Shown in pieces: positions 4,292-14,980 of a DNA stretch of 64,000 nt. This DNA is from Acidimicrobiaceae bacterium (GTDB lineage: Bacteria > Actinomycetota > Acidimicrobiia > Acidimicrobiales > Aldehydirespiratoraceae). Position numbers and translations under genes: made by a program. The stretch's first letter is position 1; the number at the start of each line of letters is the position of its first letter. The notes below the pieces were generated by a model, which had not been told where the DNA came from, searched no databases, and was given only the letters and a program-made list of their open reading frames with translations. The DNA lies in NCBI GenBank assembly GCA_026706815.1, contig JAPOYA010000041.1, positions 102,500 through 166,499 of the forward strand, given 5' to 3'.

Positions 4292-4392
4292 CCGTTCACC
4301 TCTGACCGGTGAGTTCACCGGACGGCGACTCCACCGGGCGCGTTTGCTTCTCGTCGTGACGGAGCTTTCAGCCTCGGCTAGTGTCGAGCACT

Positions 4393-5229
4393 ATGGATGA
4401 GCTGCTGACTCCTATTGAGTCAGAATCCTCAGAGCAGGCGTTCGCAAAGCCCAAGAAGATGAAGACGAAGGAATACAACCGCGAGTTGGCCCGTCTGCAA
4501 GAGGAACTAGTGCGGCTGCAGCGCTGGATCCGCCACAAGGGCCTCAAGGTGGTGGTCGTCTTCGAAGGTCGTGACGCGGCCGGCAAGGGAGGGGTTATCA
4601 AGCGGATCACCGAACGCCTCAACCCCCGGGTGGCTCGGGTTGTCGCCCTCGGCACGCCGAGCGACCGCGAGAAGACCCAGTGGTGGTTCCAGCGGTACGT
4701 GGCGGAGCTGCCCGCCGCGGGGGAGATGGTGCTGTTCGATCGCAGTTGGTACAACCGCGGTCTTGTCGAGCCGGTCATGGGGTACTGCACCGATGAGGAG
4801 TACCGCGAGTTCCTTCGCTCATGCCCCGGGTTCGAGCGCATGTTGGTGAGGTCGGGCATCATCTTGATCAAGTACTGGTTCTCGGTGAGCGACGCCGAAC
4901 AGGAGCGTCGCTTTCAGAGTCGGATCTCTGATCCGGTCAGGCGCTGGAAGTTGTCACCGGTCGACTTGGAGGGCCGGTCACGCTGGGTCGACTTCTCAAA
5001 AGCCAAGGACACGTTGTTCGAGCACACCGATATCAAGCAGGCCCCCTGGTATGTGGTCAATGCCGACTCCAAGAAAAGGGCCCGGTTGAACTGCATCTCC
5101 CACTTGCTGTCGCAAATCCCCTACGAGACGGTCCCGTGGGAGGACGTCGAGCTGCCCGAGAGGCAGTCGGCGTCGGGTTATGTGAGACCGCCGATCTCGG
5201 ATCAGACGTTCGTTCCCGAGAGATACTGA
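4393..5229 (+). CDS. ppk2: Polyphosphate kinase 2
   Basis: EGRDAAGKGG Walker A, FDRSWYNR, RWKLSPVD. Start may instead be GTG 4381. Confidence 0.95.
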   Translation: MDELLTPIESESSEQAFAKPKKMKTKEYNRELARLQEELVRLQRWIRHKGLKVVVVFEGRDAAGKGGVIKRITERLNPRVARVVALGTPSDREKTQWWFQRYVAELPAAGEMVLFDRSWYNRGLVEPVMGYCTDEEYREFLRSCPGFERMLVRSGIILIKYWFSVSDAEQERRFQSRISDPVRRWKLSPVDLEGRSRWVDFSKAKDTLFEHTDIKQAPWYVVNADSKKRARLNCISHLLSQIPYETVPWEDVELPERQSASGYVRPPISDQTFVPERY

Positions 5230-5286
5230 GCGCAGCCTTTCACCCCAGTGCGCCCGTGTAGCTGCGCATGTTCTAAATTGCGCTGG

Positions 5287-6630
5287 GTGGGCACGGATTT
5301 CGACGCGATCTTCAAGGCTTATGACGTCCGCGGCACTGTCCCGGACCAGTTCGACGCGAACGGCGCGAAAGCTATTGGCGGGGCGTTTGCACGGTTCGTC
5401 CGGGCTAGGGGGAGCCGGTCGATTCTGGTCGGCCGTGACATGCGGCCCGAGGGGGAGGAGATGGCGGCGGCCTTCGCCGACGGAGCGTTGGACCACGGAA
5501 TCGATGTGGTTGACGTCGGGTTGTGCGCGACCGACATGATGTACTACGGGTCGGGGCACTTGGGCATTCCGGGGGCGGTTCTCACTGCCTCGCACAACCC
5601 GGCGGGCTACAACGGAATCAAGATGTGCCTCTCCCACGCCGTGCCCATCGGCGCTGGCGCCGGGCTCGGCGAGATCAAGCAGATAGCGATTTCCGGCCCT
5701 GATCCTATGGGCAAGCGGGGTTCTCTCACCCGACTCGACATCCTCGACGGCTATGTCGCCCATGTGCGCTCGTTCGTCGACGTCGATGCTCTTGAACCGC
5801 TGCGAGTGGTGGCCGACACGGCCAACGGGATGGGGGGGTTGACGGTCCCGCCGGTGTTCGCCGGGCTGCCCTTTGAACTCGACCACATGTATCCGGAGCT
5901 CGACGGCACATTCCCGAACCATCCGGCTGATCCCATCCAGCCTGAGAACTGCGAGGATCTCGCCGAAAGGGTGCTGCTCAACCGCGCGGACATCGGACTG
6001 GCCTTCGACGGCGACGCAGACCGGGTGTTCCTGATTGACGAGAACGCCCGGGCTGTGTCGGGGTCGTTGACGACCGCCATGGTCGCGCGCTCAATTCTGG
6101 CTCGTGAGCCGGGCGCAGTCATCGTCCACAACCTGATCTGCTCCAAGACCGTGCCGGAGGTGATCGCCGAGGGGAACGGCACGGCTGTGCGGACACGGGT
6201 CGGCCATTCGTTCATCAAGCAGGTGATGCTCGAGACTGGGGCGGTTTTCGGCGGTGAGCATTCAGGCCATTACTATTTCCGCGACAACTTCGGAGCCGAC
6301 AGCGGCCTGATTGCCGCATTGGTCGTGCTTGAAGCGTTGAGCAGGCATTCAGCAGGTCTTTCCGACCTCGTTTCGGCACTTGACCGTTATGCCGTCTCGG
6401 GTGAGATCAACACGAAGGCAGATGATCCGGCCGCGGTGATCGACAGGGTGGCCGCTGCTTTCGCCGGGGCCGAGCAGGATCGCATGGACGGCCTCACTGT
6501 CGACCTCGGAGACTGGTGGTTCAACCTGCGTCCGTCCAACACTGAGCCGCTGCTTCGCCTCAACCTCGAAGCAGGAGCCCAGGACGAAGTAGATCTCCGG
6601 GTGCAAGAAGTCCTGGCCCTGTTCGCCTAG
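5287..6630 (+). CDS. manB: Phosphomannomutase/phosphoglucomutase
   Basis: FKAYDVRG, TASHNP, FDGDADR, GGEHSGHYY, RPSNTEP; TAAATT -10 box 7 nt before GTG 5287. Confidence 0.93.
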   Translation: MGTDFDAIFKAYDVRGTVPDQFDANGAKAIGGAFARFVRARGSRSILVGRDMRPEGEEMAAAFADGALDHGIDVVDVGLCATDMMYYGSGHLGIPGAVLTASHNPAGYNGIKMCLSHAVPIGAGAGLGEIKQIAISGPDPMGKRGSLTRLDILDGYVAHVRSFVDVDALEPLRVVADTANGMGGLTVPPVFAGLPFELDHMYPELDGTFPNHPADPIQPENCEDLAERVLLNRADIGLAFDGDADRVFLIDENARAVSGSLTTAMVARSILAREPGAVIVHNLICSKTVPEVIAEGNGTAVRTRVGHSFIKQVMLETGAVFGGEHSGHYYFRDNFGADSGLIAALVVLEALSRHSAGLSDLVSALDRYAVSGEINTKADDPAAVIDRVAAAFAGAEQDRMDGLTVDLGDWWFNLRPSNTEPLLRLNLEAGAQDEVDLRVQEVLALFA

Positions 6631-6675
6631 CGCCCAAGCGTCTGTCAGCGCCCGGTTTCTGGTTGACTGGGAAAC

Positions 6676-6915
6676 ATGACCCTCGACATTCGCCTCCTTG
6701 AGATTCTGGCCTGCCCGATCGACCGCGGCCCGCTGCTCTATTTCGCCGACGAGGAAATGCTGTACAACCCGCGTCTTCAGAAGCGATATCGCATTCATGA
6801 AGGCGACATACCGGTGATGCTGCCCGAGGAGGCGAGCGATGTGGACGCTGAGGAGCATTCACGCCTGATGGCTGAAGCCGAAGCCGGGGGCGTCGCTTCG
6901 ACTTCTGGGGACTGA
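6676..6915 (+). CDS. Trm112-family protein
   Basis: LLEILACP...YRIHEGDIPVML pattern; usual position after manB in Actinobacteria. Confidence 0.9.
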   Translation: MTLDIRLLEILACPIDRGPLLYFADEEMLYNPRLQKRYRIHEGDIPVMLPEEASDVDAEEHSRLMAEAEAGGVASTSGD

Positions 6916-6927
6916 CTGCCTGGTGGC

Positions 6928-8100
6928 ATGGTGCTGATCGACGGCGTGGTCAAGAACTACGACTGGGGTTCGCTCACAGCGATCCCCGAGTTGCTGGGCA
7001 GACGCGCCACCGGTGAGCCTGTGGCGGAGTTGTGGTTCGGGGCTCACCCCTCGGGACCGGCAGTGCTGCGCGAGTCGAGCACTCCGCTCGATGAGCACAT
7101 AGGGGTCGACCCGGTCGCCGCCCTCGGCGCCGCGGTTGCCGATGAATTCGGTTCGCTTCCCTTCTTGCTGAAGGTGTTGGCTGCGGGGTCCCCGCTCTCA
7201 CTGCAAGTGCATCCGTCCACCGCGCAGGCTCGCGCGGGTTTCGAGCGGGAAGAGTCCCTGGGCATCGACCGCGACGGCGAGAACCGCTGTTTCCGTGATA
7301 GGCGGCACAAACCGGAGTTGATCTGCGCTCTGAGCGAGTTCAGCGCTCTTTGCGGTTTCCGCGAGCCGGCAGAGTCCCTTGAGCTGCTCGCCACGATCCC
7401 GACCGAGGCCCTTGATCCTGTCAGGGCCCGACTCGCTGCTGAGCCGTCGCCTGAGGGCGTCCGCGGCCTCCTGCAGTGGTTGCTGTCACAGAACGGGGAG
7501 TCCGCAGCTGCTCTGGTGGGGCCGGTGGTTGCGGCTTGCCGACGGGAGTCTTCGCTGCCGTTCGCGGCTGAGCGGGAGATGGTGGCGGAACTGGGCCGTC
7601 GGTATCGCCGTGACCCGGCGGTGGTGGTCGCACTGCTGTTGAACCTCGTGACGCTGCATCCGGGCGAGGCGATCTTCTTCGGGCCGGGCAGCCTGCACGC
7701 CTACCTGCGGGGAACGGGCGTGGAGCTGATGGCCAATTCCGACAATGTCGTGCGCGCCGGTTTGACGGCCAAGCACGTGGATGCGGTGACTCTTCTCGAC
7801 ATCGTCGACACGACGCCGATGACCGTTGATGTGCAGCGCCCGTCGGCCGTCGACGGCGTGGTCAGCTATCGAAGCCCTGTCCCGGAGTTCTCACTTCAGC
7901 GGTTTGACCTGAACGGCGAGATCCGGATCGAGCCGGGCCCCGCGATCCTGCTGTGCACATGGGGCCAAGCGCATGTTGAGGGCCGAGCCTCCCGACACCC
8001 CTTGGCGCGCGGCGAGGCAGTGTGGATGTCGGCCTGCGATGGGCCAGCCCGGTTGAACGGCGCCGCGACTGTGTTCCGCGCGGGCCTAGGTTGTTCATAA
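6928..8100 (+). CDS. manA: Mannose-6-phosphate isomerase, class I
   Basis: YDWGS, AELWFGAHP, LSLQVHP, HKPEL, HAYLRG, ANSDNVVRAGLT. Confidence 0.95.
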   Translation: MVLIDGVVKNYDWGSLTAIPELLGRRATGEPVAELWFGAHPSGPAVLRESSTPLDEHIGVDPVAALGAAVADEFGSLPFLLKVLAAGSPLSLQVHPSTAQARAGFEREESLGIDRDGENRCFRDRRHKPELICALSEFSALCGFREPAESLELLATIPTEALDPVRARLAAEPSPEGVRGLLQWLLSQNGESAAALVGPVVAACRRESSLPFAAEREMVAELGRRYRRDPAVVVALLLNLVTLHPGEAIFFGPGSLHAYLRGTGVELMANSDNVVRAGLTAKHVDAVTLLDIVDTTPMTVDVQRPSAVDGVVSYRSPVPEFSLQRFDLNGEIRIEPGPAILLCTWGQAHVEGRASRHPLARGEAVWMSACDGPARLNGAATVFRAGLGCS

Positions 8101-8155: not shown

Positions 8156-9558
8156 GGGACTGTCAGTTTTTTTGTGTATCGGGCTGTGATGGTTTTCATT
8201 GGGTGTGGTCGGCGGTCCGGTCGCCGTGGTGGATAGTCGGGGTGTTGAGTGTGGTTTTCCAGCCGTTGGTCTTGCCGGTGGGGTTGGTGCGGTTCTTGTG
8301 TCGGGCGGTGGCGGCGGGGTAGAGGATCTTCATGGCTGCCTGCTCGTTGGGGAAGTGCCCTCGGTGCCGCACGGCTCTGCGGGGTCTGGCGTTGGGGCTC
8401 TCGACGGCGTTGGCAGTGCACGATCCGGCGAAGCTCCGATGGGAACTCCAGGAACGGTGTGAACTCGTGCCAGGCGTTGCGCCAGGCGCGGATCATAGCG
8501 GGGTAGGTGTGTTCCCGGTGCTGGGCGGACGCCTCGAGGGAGGCTTCGGCGGCCTCGACGGTGGGGGCTGTGCAGATCTCGCGCGTGGACTTCGTGGTCG
8601 GCCCCCGGTGCTTCTTGGACGCGTAGCGCAGGCTGTCGCGGGCCGTGTGCGCCACACAGGTCCGCGCCGTGGCTTGGGGCCAGGTGGCGCGTATCGACTC
8701 GGGCAGGCCCCGCAGCCCGTCGCAGCACACGATCAGCGCGTCGGCGAGGCCCCGGTCGCGCAGTTCTGTGAGCATCGTCGCCCGCTGCTTGGCGCCCTCG
8801 CCGCCAGACGGGCCCGGCCACAGCCCCAACACGTCCCGACCGCCGGCGGGATCGACGCCGACGGCGACGTAGACGGGCCGGTCGGCGACCTGGGCGTCGC
8901 GGGCCTTGACGGCGATCGCGTCGATCAACAACACCGGATAAACGGGCTCGGGGGGCCGGTTCTGCCACACCGCCATATCGGCTGTGGTCTCGTCGGCGGT
9001 CTTCGAGATCGTCTCGCGGCCCGCCGAGGTGTCATAGATCTCCGCTAGGCGCGCCTGGATCTCCCCGGTCGTGAGACCCTTCGCGTGCAGGCTGATCACA
9101 TTCCCTGTCAGCCCGTCGAGGCGGCGGCGGTGCTCGGGCGCCGTCACCGGCTCGAACGTGCCCGCCCGGTCACGAGGCGCCCGCAGACCGGCCTCGCCGA
9201 TCCCGGTGGCGGCCCGCTTGGGCGAAGAACCGTTGCGCGAGTTCGCCGTCCCGCGGCCCTCCACCGCGCGGCGCCCATAACCGAGATGCTCAGACATCTC
9301 GACCTCCGAACCACATTGGAGCACCTGGCGCACCAGCCCCGTCAACAGCCCGCCGTCGCCGGTGAGCTCAACGCCCCCGCTGCGCGCTCTAGCGACCAGC
9401 AGCTCAGCCCAGTCCCTCATCTCCGCCTCACCAACAGAGCCGTTCGCCGGCAACACCGGCAGATCATGACCAGCCACAGACATGACCCCTTCCCGGCCCA
9501 CAGCATCTGGCCGCGGACCCTCAGACCACGCCCGATACACAAAATTTCTGACAGGCCC
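8156..9558 (-). mobile_element. IS256-family insertion sequence, degenerate
   Basis: Imperfect 29-bp terminal inverted repeats: GGGACTGTCAGTTTTTTTGTGTATCGGGC (8156-8184) and reverse complement GGGCCTGTCAGAAATTTTGTGTATCGGGC (9530-9558). They enclose an IS256 transposase. No target duplication seen. Confidence 0.9.
8196..9483 (-). pseudogene. IS256-family transposase, frameshifted near 8417 and heavily substituted
   Basis: NSRNG, PRDRAGTFEP, LIDAI, CCDGLRGL and CxxH motifs. After RRIVH the family-like text continues in another frame (ANAVESPNARPRRAVRHRGHFPNEQAAMKILY...) to TGA at 8196-8198. Confidence 0.9.
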
Positions 9559-9966: not shown

Positions 9967-9996
9967 AGGATACCGGCTGGTGTGGTCTGGATACAA
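9967..9996 (-). promoter_or_regulatory. Putative sigma-A promoter (leaderless) of the 9655-9959 gene
   Basis: On the minus strand: TTGTAT, 18 nt, TATCCT, 7 nt, then GTG. Confidence 0.55.
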
Positions 9997-9997
9997 G

Positions 9998-11329
9998 TGT
10001 CCCGTGTCAAGGGTTTGGGGCGGATTTCTGGTGTGGTGGTTTGGTGGTGGGGGTTTGTCGGTAGCGGTGGGGGGGCCGGGTCGTGTCGATGGCTTCGTGG
10101 GGGCGGATCTGGTTGTGGGTCGTTCGGTGGGAGCGGGCCTGGGCTGCGAGTTCGATGCCGTCGGCTGTGTCTGTGCGGTGGAGGTGCTCGTATTTGAGGG
10201 CTTCGAAGAACCGCTCGATCATTCCGTTGGTCTGCGGTGCCCGATTGCGGGTGCGGATGTGGGTGGTGTGGCGCTTGGAGGCTGCCCGGGCGGCGAACCG
10301 GGCTGGTTTGAAGCAGGGTCCGTTGTCGGTCGCCGGTTTCAGGGCGCCGGTCTCGCCGGTGTCGGGATCGGCGAGGTCGGCGACCCAGGTGATGCCCAGA
10401 GGGTTCTCGGCCTCTGCCAGGGCGCAGTCGAGGGATCTGATGGCGTCGGCGGTGGTTTTGGTGAGGCTGACCTCGCAGGCGGGGCTGGCCTTGGCCTAGC
10501 AGTCCACGACACCGCCCAGGTTCCAGGTCCCGGCGCCGTTGGTCTCGAACTCGGAGAAGTCGGCCTGCCACAGCCGGTTCCGGCGCGTCGGCGGGTCGAC
10601 GAAGGCCTGTTTGCGCGCGCCGGCTGCCTTGCGGATCTCGGCGGTGTAGTTCGCCCGCAGCGCGAGCCCGTTGCGGGCCGGCACCCGGTGCATGGTCGGG
10701 TCCGGCACCGGGCCCGCCTCCACAGAACCGATGCCGAACCCCTTGAGGGCGGCCAGCTTGCGGCGCCCCCAGCCCTCCCAGTCAGCGGCCAGCGTCTTGG
10801 CGTCGGCCTCGACGGCGTCCTGGGCTGGAGCGGGCCACGGCCCCTTTCGCTGCGCTGGACGCGGACCGCCACCGATACCAGGCCGCCCGCGGGATCCCCG
10901 CGATCTCGCAGAACCGGGCGACCGCTGCGCCCGCCTCGGCGCGGAGGGCGTCGAGCTCGCCGACCGCCCATACAGCGAGACCCCCCCTTTTTTCCACACC
11001 CGCAGCTCCATGCGCGCCTCGCCCAAAGCGGTGTTGAGCTGCTCGACCTCGCCGCCGACTGCTGCTCACGAGCCGACGGCCCGTGCCGAGCACCGGCCTC
11101 CAACGCTTGCCGTCCACCAGCGAGGAACTGATCGCGCCACTCCGAGACCGAGACCGACGACGCCCCCTCCCGACGGGCCGCCTCCGCAACCGAGACCCCC
11201 CCCCCCGCAACACAGCCAAAACGATCCTCGCCTTGCCCTCCACAGACCTCCCAGACCGACAGCCCATCCAGCCCCTCCCCCCAATCAGCACCAAACCACG
11301 ACCTGACTCAGAAATCTTGACACGGGATA
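9998..11329 (-). mobile_element. IS3-family insertion sequence, degenerate, with 4-bp target duplication CAAG
   Basis: Ends TGTCCCGTGTCAAG and reverse complement TATCCCGTGTCAAG. CAAG at 9994-9997 and 11330-11333. A6G slippery site at 10987-10993 on the minus strand. Confidence 0.85.
10007..11267 (-). pseudogene. IS3-family OrfA (HTH) and OrfB (DDE integrase-like) with frameshifts and an internal TAG
   Basis: OrfA fragments RIVLAVLRG...WRDQFLAGG...ELRVWKKGG. OrfB fragments NRLWQADFSEF, TDNGPCF, NGMIERFFEALKYE, NQIRPHEAI. Stop codon at VVDC*AK. Confidence 0.85.
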
Positions 11330-11399
11330 CAAGAAGCTTCGGCTTGTGGTCAGCTCGGTTCCGTCCAGACAGCGCGGTTCAAGTTTTCGGATGTTGGAC

Positions 11400-11436: not shown

Positions 11437-14400
11437 ATGAAGAGCCGTTGTGTTTCCGCGTTCCGTTGTTTGAAGCTGTCACACGCTGGGAGGTGGCCCC
11501 ACAAGCGCCGCGGCCAAAGCGCTGGGGGCGGGGTTGGTCGCCGCGGCGAAGCGTTCGGCGCTGCCCGGTTTGTTGGGGTGGTTGTAGCGGTGTCGGTGTT
11601 GGCTTTGGGTTTGTCTGTGGACCCGGAGTCGGGCTCTTTGCTGTCCCCGGCGGCTGCTGATGAGCAGACCGAGGAATATAAAGTGAGGGTGGAGCCGTTC
11701 ACCCGCACGATACCGGTCTGGAACTACGAGGAGCGCACCAGCCGGGTCAGGGTCGCTCCTTACGTCAAGACCGTGGCCGCCTACAACTATGGGAACCGCA
11801 CCAGCCGGGTCAGGGTCGCGCCGTTCACCCGCACGATACCGGTCTGGAACTACGAGGAGCGCACCAGCCGGGTCAGGGTCGCTCCTTACGTCAAGACCGT
11901 GGCCGCCTACAACTACGGGAACCGGCGGTCGTGCCACCCGCTGCACGGCTGCTCGACAACCCGGGTCAGGGTCGCGCCGTTCACCCGCACGATACCGGTC
12001 TGGAACTACGAGGAGCGCACCAGCCGGGTCAGGGTCGCTCCCTACGCCAAGACCGTGGCCGCCCACAACTACGAAACCCGCACACGCCCCGTCCCTCACA
12101 CCCACCCCACCACAACAACCGAGGCTCCGACCACGACCGAAGCTCCGACTGAAGCTGAGGCTCCGACCACGACCGAGGCACCGACAACAACCGCAGCCCC
12201 AACCACCACTGTGGCTCCGACTGAGGTTCAGGCTCCGACAACGACTGCGGCTCCGACTACGACTACAACGACGACGGTTGCGCCGACAACGACAACAACG
12301 GTGCCGTCGACTACGGCGCCTGTTCAGGGGGACTGCCCCAGCGGCTACTACCAACTCGCCGATCCGTTGCCGAGGGCCTGGATCGATCTGTTTGATCGCA
12401 CCGTCAGTTTCGACCAGGCCACAGGGCTGCACCCTGAGCCTGTCGTGTGGGTGAAACAACCAAGCACGCCGCGCGCACAAGACAGGGGCTGTCACATCGC
12501 CCGTTTCAAGGTGACCGATGTGGGCGCGGTAAACGAAAACGAACTGCAACAAGCAGCACAAGCCGCGTTGGCGGTCGGCTCACAAGCATACAACACCATC
12601 TGCAGTGGCGAACTCTTGACCAACATCCCTCAGGCGAAACGAGCAGCGGAGAAGTCCAAGACCGTCGCCAGGATCGCTACGAGGCTGGGCACTACCAGCG
12701 CCAGAATCGTGCAGCGGGCTTCCATCGCGTTGAGCGTTGTCTGCCTGCCGGCCACCCTACAAGACGCACGCAGCGTCTTGAGATGGATCGGCGGTCTGTT
12801 ATCAACACGGCCGAAGCCGCCGTGCCCTGACCCTCCGACGAGGTTGGCCCTAGTCGGTACCGATGGGGCGATACAGGTGTCATGGACACCCCCAACCAAC
12901 GCACCCCAAGACAAGGCCAACGAACACGGCGGGCACAAATACTCTGTCCATTGGGGGGAAGGTGCGAGTTCGCTGGGCGCTCCGATCACGGGAATCAAGA
13001 CCATCTGGCGTTCGGGGCCTCGAGCGACGCACACAATTGCAGCAGAAAATGGGCACGAATACTGGGTTCAAGTCTTCTGGGGCACGAAGCACGGATGCGA
13101 TGGGCGAACACCAGTAGTAGAGGGAACAGTCACCCCAATCACCGCTCCTAGTGCGCCGACCGGGTTGGTCCTTGCGCCTGCTGGCGGGCAGATACGGGTT
13201 TCATGGCGAGCGGCGCCGCACAGCAGCGCCGCACCCGTGGAGGGATACGACATAACGTGGGGCGACAGCGGAGGTCGTATCAATAGCGCTCGCGTGGGCC
13301 AAGGCACCACAGTGTACCTGATCGGGGGTCTCACCAACGGGAGGACCTATCATGTCAGCGTGTCCGCGCACAATGTCTCGGGCCCCTCGACTGCAGTATC
13401 CGACACAGAAATCCCAGTCGCTGCTCCTAGTGCGCCGACCGGGTTGGTCCTTGCGCCTGCTGGCGGGCAGATACAGGTTTCATGGCAAGGACCGCCGCGC
13501 AGCAGCGCCGCACCTGTCGAGCGGTTCAAAATAACGTGGAGCGATGTCTTTGAATCCCGTGTCCGCGACGTTCACCTGCAACAAGATGCCAGAGAGTACA
13601 CGATCAAGGGCCTCACTAACGGGAGCGTCTATCGCGTCAGCGTGTCCGCGTACAATATCGTGGGTCACTCGGCTCCCGCTAGCGGCACAGCAATCCCCAG
13701 GTTCGCTGCTCCTAGTGCGCCGACCGGGTTGGTCCTTGCGCCTGCTGACGGGCAGATACAGGTTTCATGGCAAGCAGCGCCGCACAGCAGCGCCGCACCC
13801 GTGGAGGGATACGACATAACGTGGAGTGACAGCGGGGGCTATGTCAACAGCGCTAGTGTGCGTCGAGGCACCACAGCGTATCTGATCGGGGGCCTTGCCA
13901 ACGCGAGGGCCTACAGCGTCAAAGTGCATGCGTACAATACCAATGACTTGAACCGCGTGTCATACTCGGCTGCCATTAGCGGCACGGCGACCCCGAGCGC
14001 TGTCCCTAGTGCACCGACCGGGTTGGTCCTTGCGCCTGCTGACGGGCAGATACGGGTTTCATGGCGAGCAGCGTCGCACAGCAGCGCCGCGCCCGTTAAG
14101 GGGTACAACATAAACTGGTATACTGGCACCGGCGCAGGCCAGCAATCTAGCGCTCTCGTGTTGCGAGGCTACACAACATATACGATCAAGGGCCTTACCA
14201 ACGGGAGAGCCTACAGCGTCTTCGTGCGTGCGGTCAATGGCGCAGGCAAATCGGCTTACATCTGGGGCAAAGCAACCCCTAGGGCAACGACAACAACCAC
14301 GACGACACTGCCCGAGGCGGACGAGTCTGTTCCGACGGTACGGACGATCCCGGACTACGACAGAGGAAAGTATTTTCTGCTCCTCAGGACAATGGAGGCC

Positions 14401-14493
14401 AAGGTGTCTCGTCCGGGGTGCCGCCTGTGGGTGCTCTGGGAGCGCAGTTCTCGGGATGTGCATGTTTGGATTTGTAAAATATACGGGAACTGA
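11437..14493 (+). CDS. Large secreted protein: 21-aa tandem repeats, Thr-rich linker, unique central domain, five fibronectin type III domains
   Basis: Hydrophobic signal segment ending SPAAA. FN3 units APSAPTGLVL...VSW...Y...GLTNG..Y.V.V.A.N. TTTEAPTTT linker. Confidence 0.85.
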   Translation: MKSRCVSAFRCLKLSHAGRWPHKRRGQSAGGGVGRRGEAFGAARFVGVVVAVSVLALGLSVDPESGSLLSPAAADEQTEEYKVRVEPFTRTIPVWNYEERTSRVRVAPYVKTVAAYNYGNRTSRVRVAPFTRTIPVWNYEERTSRVRVAPYVKTVAAYNYGNRRSCHPLHGCSTTRVRVAPFTRTIPVWNYEERTSRVRVAPYAKTVAAHNYETRTRPVPHTHPTTTTEAPTTTEAPTEAEAPTTTEAPTTTAAPTTTVAPTEVQAPTTTAAPTTTTTTTVAPTTTTTVPSTTAPVQGDCPSGYYQLADPLPRAWIDLFDRTVSFDQATGLHPEPVVWVKQPSTPRAQDRGCHIARFKVTDVGAVNENELQQAAQAALAVGSQAYNTICSGELLTNIPQAKRAAEKSKTVARIATRLGTTSARIVQRASIALSVVCLPATLQDARSVLRWIGGLLSTRPKPPCPDPPTRLALVGTDGAIQVSWTPPTNAPQDKANEHGGHKYSVHWGEGASSLGAPITGIKTIWRSGPRATHTIAAENGHEYWVQVFWGTKHGCDGRTPVVEGTVTPITAPSAPTGLVLAPAGGQIRVSWRAAPHSSAAPVEGYDITWGDSGGRINSARVGQGTTVYLIGGLTNGRTYHVSVSAHNVSGPSTAVSDTEIPVAAPSAPTGLVLAPAGGQIQVSWQGPPRSSAAPVERFKITWSDVFESRVRDVHLQQDAREYTIKGLTNGSVYRVSVSAYNIVGHSAPASGTAIPRFAAPSAPTGLVLAPADGQIQVSWQAAPHSSAAPVEGYDITWSDSGGYVNSASVRRGTTAYLIGGLANARAYSVKVHAYNTNDLNRVSYSAAISGTATPSAVPSAPTGLVLAPADGQIRVSWRAASHSSAAPVKGYNINWYTGTGAGQQSSALVLRGYTTYTIKGLTNGRAYSVFVRAVNGAGKSAYIWGKATPRATTTTTTTLPEADESVPTVRTIPDYDRGKYFLLLRTMEAKVSRPGCRLWVLWERSSRDVHVWICKIYGN
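11680..12084 (+). repeat. Six alternating 63-bp coding repeats (RVRVAPFTRTIPVWNYEERTS / RVRVAPYVKTVAAYNYGNRTS)
   Basis: Near-identical DNA copies in A-B-A-B-A-B order; a short CHPLHGC insertion precedes the fifth unit. Confidence 0.95.
13144..14280 (+). repeat. Four ~280-295-bp FN3 coding repeats
   Basis: Shared start CCTAGTGCRCCGACCGGGTTGGTCCTTGCGCCTGCT in units beginning at about 13144, 13423, 13708 and 14002. Confidence 0.9.
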
Positions 14494-14617: not shown

Positions 14618-14647
14618 TTGACGCAAAGCCAGTAAGGTAGTTAGGAT
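14618..14647 (+). promoter_or_regulatory. Putative sigma-A promoter of the 14657 gene
   Basis: TTGACG, 18 nt, TAGGAT, then ATG 9 nt downstream. Confidence 0.6.
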
Positions 14648-14656
14648 GACAATCTG

Positions 14657-14980
14657 ATGGCAGAAATGGCGACATCCGAGGAAGCCACACAGACCGGACC
14701 GGTAGACGAAAGACCACGACTGCTCTCTGTCGATGTATTGACCTCGGGCTACCTCTTTGGTTTGCCTCTGCTGGTGTGGGCTTGGATAGCTGTGACTCAG
14801 TCCCCTCTACGGAACACCATATCGCTGGGGTTTTACGTAGTGTGGGTACTTGGCGATCTGGCGGTATATCGAATCAGACACCGTGTGATGCCTCCCCGTC
14901 CAACATGGGGCAGACACAACCGCTGGACAGTCCCATTGCTCTTCTTTGTCTTAATCGTAGGAACGACCCAAGGCATCTAA
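14657..14980 (+). CDS. Small hypothetical membrane protein (about 3 TM segments)
   Basis: 107-aa ORF with three hydrophobic stretches, its own promoter and a paralog at 9655-9959. Confidence 0.75.
   Translation: MAEMATSEEATQTGPVDERPRLLSVDVLTSGYLFGLPLLVWAWIAVTQSPLRNTISLGFYVVWVLGDLAVYRIRHRVMPPRPTWGRHNRWTVPLLFFVLIVGTTQGI

Follow-up and report, generated by a model that had tools for sequence, protein, structure and literature searches.

Polar A:T>G:C decay of a dead IS256-family element and other insertion sequence remnants in an Acidimicrobiia genome from sponge metagenomes

Introduction

Genome G000, an assembly of 3.04 Mb in 65 contigs, carries a transposase gene that seemed to have been rewritten almost exclusively by A:T>G:C changes, which raises the question of what process could do this and whether it is tied to insertion sequence (IS) DNA. 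An AT-ward drift is the expectation for dead bacterial DNA; the decay of IS elements in G000 runs in the opposite direction, at a rate set on each strand by the distance from the element ends. An earlier note on this DNA had proposed a process like the RIP of fungi, in which mobile repeats are inactivated by dense C>T transitions on both strands in a dinucleotide context. We analyzed the stretch of 64,000 nucleotides that holds the gene (contig C36:102500-166499, hereafter the window, from whose first base positions without a contig label are counted) together with the genomes of relatives (labelled G001, G002 and so on, G006 being the sister genome). The sequencing runs that contain the window are sponge metagenomes, with no RNA run among the matches listed. 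Homologues of the window transposase at 75% identity carry the label Candidatus Poriferisocius (Acidimicrobiia), and it is through these relatives that the host of the window was placed in its genus. In the counts below A:T>G:C changes are called upward and G:C>A:T changes downward.

A dead IS256-family element

The element lies at 8156..9558 on the minus strand (approximately 1403 bp, the ends being approximate) and encodes a Mutator-type DDE transposase (Pfam PF00872, E 5.3e-75), with 2071 homologues at E<=1e-100 among the 7998 scored. Inverted repeats of IS256-family type were found at both ends, at 9530..9558 (minus strand, the 5' end of the transposase strand) and at 8156..8184 (plus strand, the 3' end), with no 8-bp target-site duplication, the 8 bases flanking each side being different. 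The interval 8196..9483 had been taken for a single transposase gene; it is an IS256 transposase, but a 2-base deletion near 8420 (8418..8422, minus strand) had been missed. The resulting frameshift separates an in-frame part of 354 codons with many radical substitutions (8422..9483, minus strand) from an out-of-frame 3' part (8196..8420, minus strand) which is also mutated (L364P, F368P, L390P, L402P, L416P). The DDE and C/DxxH codons are not among the changes of this copy, but the frameshift precedes the third acidic, catalytic residue, and on that account we count the element, as judged from its sequence, as a dead member of the IS256 family. Near-identical ends of it occur on three other contigs of G000, and no intact IS256 transposase is assembled in this genome. 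Among the matching contigs of other runs, which were examined as contigs only, no end-to-end circle joint of the element was found.

IS256-related copies were present in 20 of the 31 genomes searched, G000 included. Sixteen long copies were aligned and, after three duplicates and one distant copy had been dropped, the remaining 12 copies from 8 genomes served as reference. The bias holds against these aligned copies: at columns identical in all 12 references, transitions had occurred in the window copy at 46 of 330 A/T sites and at 6 of 549 G/C sites. Non-synonymous changes were 58/354 upward and 1/375 downward, which bears out the claim that this transposase is hypermutated almost only from A:T to G:C, and non-synonymous transversions numbered 3-8 in each of the four classes. 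The ten differences that had been called at 8570-8670 were all recovered against real homologues (V273A, Q274R, V278A, M280T, V281A, N283D, W293R, I296T, Y304C, M300T), as were those in the other quoted motifs (Y133H, L178P, L212P, E215G, L223P, W234R, L364P, F368P). Nonsense changes were 0/112, again as the earlier note had it. As A:T>G:C cannot create a stop codon, long open frames survive in such pseudogenes; dead copies therefore enter annotations as transposases and distort what is estimated as the neutral spectrum.

At the protein level, 222 columns are shared by 90% or more of 119 homologues, and the window copy departs from them at 31; 26 of these departures were reachable only by A:T>G:C and 0 only by G:C>A:T. 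Radical changes at conserved transposase residues were 33/194 upward and 0/241 downward. A broken IS256 copy in G007 behaved normally (4/355 upward, 6/378 downward, four stops). Contigs of one sequencing run (X1) matched pieces of the window element exactly, and a run from a separate study (X2) covered 800 bp of it, differing at 7 letters and by 2 gaps, and a further 602 bp, differing at 4 letters and by 1 gap, so that it carries the element at 99%; exact pieces in the one and nearly the same letters in the other, independent run rule out assembly artefact as the source of the changes.

The bias in other IS remnants and other genomes

The load proved broader than first described. Radical changes at conserved transposase residues, the only changes entered in this count, were 161/1499 upward and 29/2098 downward (7.8-fold) when five groups of G000 remnants were pooled (IS256, the neighboring two-ORF element, two ISL3 groups and IS3), each transversion class lying below 1%, and the window copy is the tail of this distribution. 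The neighboring element (9993..11340, minus strand) is a second dead element of rve type, probably IS3-like, with two stop codons and with the same bias and polarity (non-synonymous changes 32/273 upward, 9/390 downward). One in-frame IS3 copy in G000 was balanced (5/153 and 7/228); the IS3 group on contig C41 was scored against two references from relatives. A:T>C:G was not raised in the remnants (6/1784, versus 9/2531 for G:C>T:A), and plain GC-biased conversion, which had also been suggested, therefore does not fit.

Remnants of the sister genome G006 had 21/257 upward and 3/362 downward changes and those of G002 had 4/108 and 1/123, whereas G005 (11/2568 upward versus 31/3927 downward) had no A:T>G:C excess; sequence covered for G005 was 2.0 of 3.5 Mb and for G006 0.39 of 3.1 Mb. 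None of the other 14 genomes had a ratio significantly different from 1, on small counts. Among the 119 protein homologues one more, P0062, together with its cluster mate P0235, had 12 upward and 0 downward changes each, and as read from the change list the A>G-type changes fell mostly before residue 165 and the T>C-type after 190. P0062, P0234 and P0235 represent another IS256 subfamily from other assemblies, and 6 of the 12 changes of P0235 are common to the window copy.

Mirror polarity along the element

Taken singly, remnants had strong but opposite strand biases, and these aligned once they were put in element coordinates. In a pool of the G000 remnants and two IS256 pieces of G006, coding-strand A>G fell from 26% to 6% over the four quarters of the element (84/321, 56/302, 28/321, 38/594) and coding-strand T>C rose from 6% to 23% (33/539, 35/312, 49/276, 71/313). 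A>G is thus maximal at the element's 5' end on each strand, a mirror pattern that is present in each of the five IS groups. In a model fit, position gave 2dLL 150, to which local G+T skew added 0.5 and coding strand 0.1. At radical sites only, in four groups of G000 (the IS3 remnant being left out), A>G went from 48/230 in the first half to 8/249 in the second and T>C from 24/422 to 50/342 (p 9e-10 and 4e-5). The window copy alone is polar (28/133 versus 17/181, p 0.005): in the quarter adjoining the 9530..9558 repeat the transposase strand has A>G at 9/39 and T>C at 4/54, and in the quarter adjoining the 8156..8184 repeat the coding strand has T>C at 11/35 and A>G at 6/79. The earlier note had placed the changes on both strands; both are affected, but not evenly, since there is strong polarity along each. 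No tie of the remnant bias to leading or lagging strand was seen when the remnants were pooled.

Referred to the strand whose 5' end is nearer, four classes were polar: A>G 201/1018 versus T>C 99/1458, C>T 77/1648 versus G>A 55/2872, C>G 63/1648 versus G>C 47/2872, and A>T 13/1018 versus T>A 4/1458. A>C versus T>G had no polarity (p 0.41) and C>A was slightly lower. In the other genomes the polar classes were C>T (148/5906 versus 98/9676) and G>T (97/9676 versus 22/5906 for C>A), A>G being weak there (p 0.08); the one class to reach p 0.04 in G005 was A>G, on 15 versus 9 events. Neighboring bases had little effect, only an A at -2 lowering the rate (2dLL 25 versus 150 for position), which rules out neighbor context as the cause. 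A RIP-like process would make a single base change in a fixed dinucleotide context, evenly along the repeat; here context was weak, there were four polar classes, and the changes were uneven along the element.

Two further ideas were set aside. Selection for C-rich, terminator-like 3' ends is disfavored by radical A>C changes in the 3' half, which were 0/395 versus the 50/342 of T>C, and C-to-U RNA editing would be unable to revert A>G.

Intact elements of this genus have a matching silent skew, G+T-rich at the 5' side and C+A-rich at the 3' side, with a slope of +0.63 for a live IS256; one of eight ISL3 copies is without it, and a silent-skew slope above 0.5 was found in 0 of 548 core genes. 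The IS256 slopes of six unrelated bacteria (nine elements were fetched and three without an annotated full gene left out) were +0.37, +0.24, +0.17, +0.16, +0.12 and -0.28, which are weaker, so that the footprint is strongest in this genus. Steep silent slopes from 5' G+T to 3' C+A occur as well in non-IS genes of G000 (C6:101670-102821, C36:225653-226921, C41:16664-17902, C48:229-3678), accessory genes which we take to be HNH/DUF222-like and restriction-like.

The rest of the genome as control

As the alternative to a process aimed at IS DNA, a mutator had been proposed that drives A:T>G:C throughout the genome and shows only under relaxed selection. Part of this idea held up. Radical changes in 53 core genes were 168/12325 upward versus 148/15474 downward in G000 (1.4-fold), 151/12208 versus 80/15220 in G006 (2.4-fold) and 95/12208 versus 110/15280 in G005 (1.1-fold), an upward tilt, so that there is a weak component that acts lineage-wide. 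At another locus, two of the three genes had 6 upward versus 0 downward changes, and GC-ward mutation spectra have been described in Actinomycetota (PMC4938668, PMC7015689). However, a mutator has no way to give a gradient in element coordinates, and the polarity refutes it as sole cause. Nor did the comparison with four-fold sites reveal a net GC gain in core genes: four-fold GC was 0.768 in G000 versus 0.765 in G006 and 0.773 in G000 versus 0.789 in G005, and a three-taxon Markov fit over the 53 genes put the four-fold transition ratio of the G000 branch at 3.25 (2.85-3.72), below the 5.75 of G005. The ratio at intergenic sites of G000 was 1.8. Variants of 18 core proteins at identities of at least 97% comprised 11 upward, 8 downward and 11 other changes (strain-level core variation was taken from protein variants, as a metagenome scan for core genes gave only distant organisms, the best at 79% over a short stretch), and the mismatch repair gene nucS is intact in 18/18 genomes. 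We therefore regard the mutator as extremely unlikely.

Core genes had no A>G gradient between their halves. Those adjoining the element (4381..8100, plus strand), which from their motifs we take to be ppk2-like, phosphomannomutase-like and manA-like, are free of hypermutation, in agreement with the earlier observation that neighboring core genes were spared. Non-IS duplicates had 19 upward and 42 downward changes in the 10 of 27 pairs that could be counted (14 were without outgroup and 3 lay in or beside IS remnants), most of the pairs being probably under selection. Among 39 disruption candidates there was no single-copy non-IS pseudogene old enough for comparison, which makes the genomic control an indirect one. 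The link of the process to IS DNA draws support from these duplicates, by the rate following element position and by the lack of gradient and of silent GC gain in core genes, and we are highly confident that it is anchored on the element.

A small HhH-GPD repair gene of G000 (C20:4532-5140) has a W-to-R change with 6 upward and 0 downward non-synonymous changes and falls below the HMM threshold in G000, G002, G005 and G006. The loss of a second HhH-GPD gene, seemingly missing in 4/18 genomes, was ruled out for G000, where the gene is present at 81% identity. Across 18 genomes of one genus the four-fold GC of three genes ranged from 0.43 to 0.83 (loci L031-L060).

Deaminases and repair genes

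Could a dedicated anti-IS adenine deaminase, a RIP-like defence loaded at IS ends or at transposition intermediates, have written these changes? The load is confined to IS, lineage-specific and inactivating, the radical changes of the window copy (33/194 versus 0/241) are near-pure A>G, and an enzyme brought to the ends would fit with a gradient starting from them. We nevertheless consider this reading very unlikely. The search for extra TadA-like deaminases that the earlier note had proposed found none in the two families covered, with the same three PF00383 and two PF14437 matches in 5/5 genomes each, biased and unbiased alike. Context is weak, non-IS repeats are spared, and C>T, C>G and A>T are as polar as A>G.

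In the 18 genomes, nucS was present in all and full-length and conserved in the 10 that were read, and endonuclease V was found in 0/18, whether biased or not. Mpg was present in 17/18 and RNase H in 18/18; two UDGs and HAM1 were each present in 5/5 genomes, and an IEE-type primase-polymerase in 0/5. The only repair-gene difference found between biased and unbiased genomes was the loss of dnaE2/imuAB. In G000, dnaE2 has been lost by deletion from contig C22, inside which its flanks are still colinear, and a search for imuA/B gave no match; the colinear positions of the missing genes are C22:11955-13533 and C22:26450-26573, where G005 has imuA/imuB-like genes and dnaE2. The dnaE2 and imuB names come from Pfam matches and position, and imuA is the name we presume for the remaining gene missing from G000. 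A single Pol III alpha (no dnaE2 found) and a broken ImuB-like piece are present in G006, DnaE2 is present in G005, G002 and G015, and G001, G003 and G008 are also without an ImuB-like match, with remnant ratios of 1.5, 1.7 and 0.6.

Damage to a transiently single-stranded IS strand is a close rival of the explanation preferred below, although we think it unlikely. The 5' part would be exposed longest, through early displacement in copy-out, through R-loops from untranslated read-in transcripts or through resection at internal breaks; A and C would deaminate, and hypoxanthine would stay, fixing A>G. That A>G and C>T lie on the same strand in the same gradient agrees with this, as do the absence of endonuclease V from all 18 genomes and the C>T and G>T changes of other genomes on that strand; the A>G and C>T gradient of vertebrate mitochondrial DNA has been linked to time spent single-stranded (PMC9561281). 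Against it, the lack of endonuclease V and the Mpg, UDG and HAM1 set are the same in biased and unbiased genomes, so that damage leaves the lineage shift unexplained. The orientation of flanking genes did not track the affected end (14 remnants, judged by eye), and the last 340 bp of an adjacent gene had no A>G excess (0/21, of low power).

Possible exchange between copies

Mismatch-filtered gene conversion between copies is the other close rival. Heteroduplexes would form between copies, in which NucS cuts G/T, G/G and T/T and not A/C, C/C or A/A, so that G and T alleles would be kept or imported on the invading strand at the sides of a homology block; a mildly GC-ward supply of mutations would then ratchet A>G into dead copies, with the polarity set by the element ends. 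It predicts the same four polar classes, and the copies are indeed mosaic. A>G alleles are common across subfamilies, a copy on contig C10 sharing 5 A>G-type changes and 1 other; silent transversions lie between the changes that copies share; the variant at one site differs between two strains; and a target duplication is lacking at the window copy. The site in question is at G000 C10:325-757, the flank of an 81% IS256 variant; in run X2 this flank is joined to a 5' end that matches the window copy at 99%. Conversion would, however, move alleles and not create them, and 17-24% is reached in remnants that have no close partner. Non-IS duplicates run the other way, as counted above, and the mosaic ISL3 family of G005 has no A:T>G:C excess by the pooled count of that genome. 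We judge this reading distinctly unlikely, a little more so than damage.

The ISL3 family of G005 (contig C1, e.g. 570544-571973) has 46 matches, and its 14 long copies are 86-93% identical to one reference; these copies are star-like, mosaic and decaying without A>G excess. An intact rve-type element stands at the same site in G000 C18 (L368) and G002 C4 (L369), at 91% identity and with approximately 8% silent transitions, which suggests a recent exchange between species.

A proposed origin in error-prone synthesis during copy-out transposition

The explanation we favor, tentatively and at somewhat less than an even chance, is that the polar A>G load arises in copy-out transposition, through error-prone synthesis that is primed at the ends of the IS, every step from pattern to enzyme being one that we infer. 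In copy-out, one IS strand is joined end to end and the host 3'-OH that is left primes synthesis through the element; circle formation is known for IS3, IS256, ISL3 and IS110, which presumably share copy-out and its priming 3'-OH (bioRxiv 2023.06.07.543989). Either IS end can act as donor, and circular intermediates are known for IS256 (PMC7780238). All five biased groups belong to, or resemble, circle-forming families.

The host 3'-OH adjoining the 5' start of one IS strand would prime synthesis from either end and so rewrite the resident copy on one strand, starting at the 5' end of that strand. Both the new donor strand and the one displaced would then be 5'-first, in the geometry that is observed. 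The tract would be started by a polymerase of low fidelity, probably DinB, which bypasses damage and is what remains once DnaE2 is lost; it would place G opposite template T and, at lower frequency, T or G opposite G and T opposite T. Such errors would escape clamp-coupled NucS repair, and fidelity would improve further in. Read as errors of the new strand, the four polar classes give G/T, T/G, G/G and T/T, the set cut by EndoMS/NucS, whose cleavage of G/T, G/G and T/T mismatches is described as clamp-dependent and as taking place at the fork (PMC6159521). Dead copies with intact ends would be rewritten repeatedly by transposase from live relatives and accumulate radical changes; live copies would retain only the silent part, which offers a possible cause for the skew from 5' G+T to 3' C+A in the intact elements of this genus. 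Overexpression of mycobacterial DinB1 is reported to produce A>G/T>C at one selected rpoB codon (PMC9346131). The lineage shift to A>G appears to coincide with DnaE2 loss, as seen in two genomes that may share one loss.

Several observations speak against this explanation. G002 keeps DnaE2 yet has the 4/108 versus 1/123 given above; G001, G003 and G008 are without an ImuB-like match yet have ratios of only 1.5, 1.7 and 0.6; and G000 has no intact IS256 transposase assembled. The DinB1 signature comes from a single rpoB codon under overexpression. The polar C>T and G>T of other genomes look like damage to an exposed strand and not like mispairing. About half of the A>G changes are common to the G006 copy and interleaved with silent differences, and X2 has a window-like 5' end where G000 holds a different variant, which together point to exchange between copies. 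There are the steep skew slopes in some non-IS accessory genes, and hundreds of rewriting cycles would be required.

More speculatively, copy-out itself may be mutagenic to the element and the lineage may use it as a brake on IS, through the loss of DnaE2/ImuAB or through an adenine-deaminating activity at the intermediate, A>G being written inward from the ends at each attempt at mobilization until the family dies. We hold this to be doubtful; if true, such a brake would be a bacterial counterpart of RIP without repeat recognition.

Relation to known systems

Fungal RIP is like the IS decay in its dense inactivating transitions on both strands of mobile repeats and differs in almost everything else: here the change is A>G and not C>T, dinucleotide context is lacking, the load is polar, non-IS duplicates are spared and no enzyme was found. 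In an M. smegmatis nucS knockout 1429 versus 959 transitions are reported, approximately 3-fold per site by our arithmetic (with GC taken to be 67%), genome-wide and tied to replichore. NucS/EndoMS-deficient mutators of Actinomycetota are likewise transition-rich and led by A:T>G:C, and the polar classes of the IS remnants are the mismatches that EndoMS cuts (PMC6159521); unlike these mutators, G000 has an intact nucS and a bias that is IS-anchored, 8-10-fold and without tie to replichore. The heavy strand of vertebrate mitochondrial DNA also has A>G and C>T on one strand along a gradient, leaving a G+T-rich strand, with the A>G part varying between lineages (PMC9561281). In the bacterial IS the gradient, by contrast, is mirrored on both strands over approximately 1.4 kb, takes the IS ends as its anchor and extends to C>G and A>T. 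Wolbachia resembles the present case as a host-associated bacterium with many decayed IS copies, but in the part of that report available to us their decay is treated as random substitution, with no mention of direction or polarity (PMC3205602). Copy-out/paste-in transposition (IS3, IS256, ISL3, IS30, IS110) shares the primer at the element end and the use of either end (PMC7780238, bioRxiv 2023.06.07.543989), and a mutagenic footprint of the copy-out step was not found in the accessible parts of the literature on it.

A literature search by title and abstract opening, with most subscription papers outside its reach, found no description of polar or A>G hypermutation of bacterial IS. What appears new is a decay that is mirror-polar, IS-anchored, lineage-amplified and A>G, and that is neither RIP nor a plain mutator. 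In the commonest transposition pathway the least understood step is the copying out of the element, and the pattern could be read as its footprint, showing which host polymerase does this work and with what fidelity.

Other features of the window

Beyond the second dead element the window holds a gene for a large secreted-looking protein (11437-14493) that combines peptide repeats in tandem, a linker rich in Thr and repeated domains that we take to be fibronectin-like; it is 75% identical to a protein of G005, and paralogues lie on other contigs. A repeat at 14639-14970 is 82% identical to G000 C10:1-332 and occurs also on contig C46, in both places beside IS256 ends.
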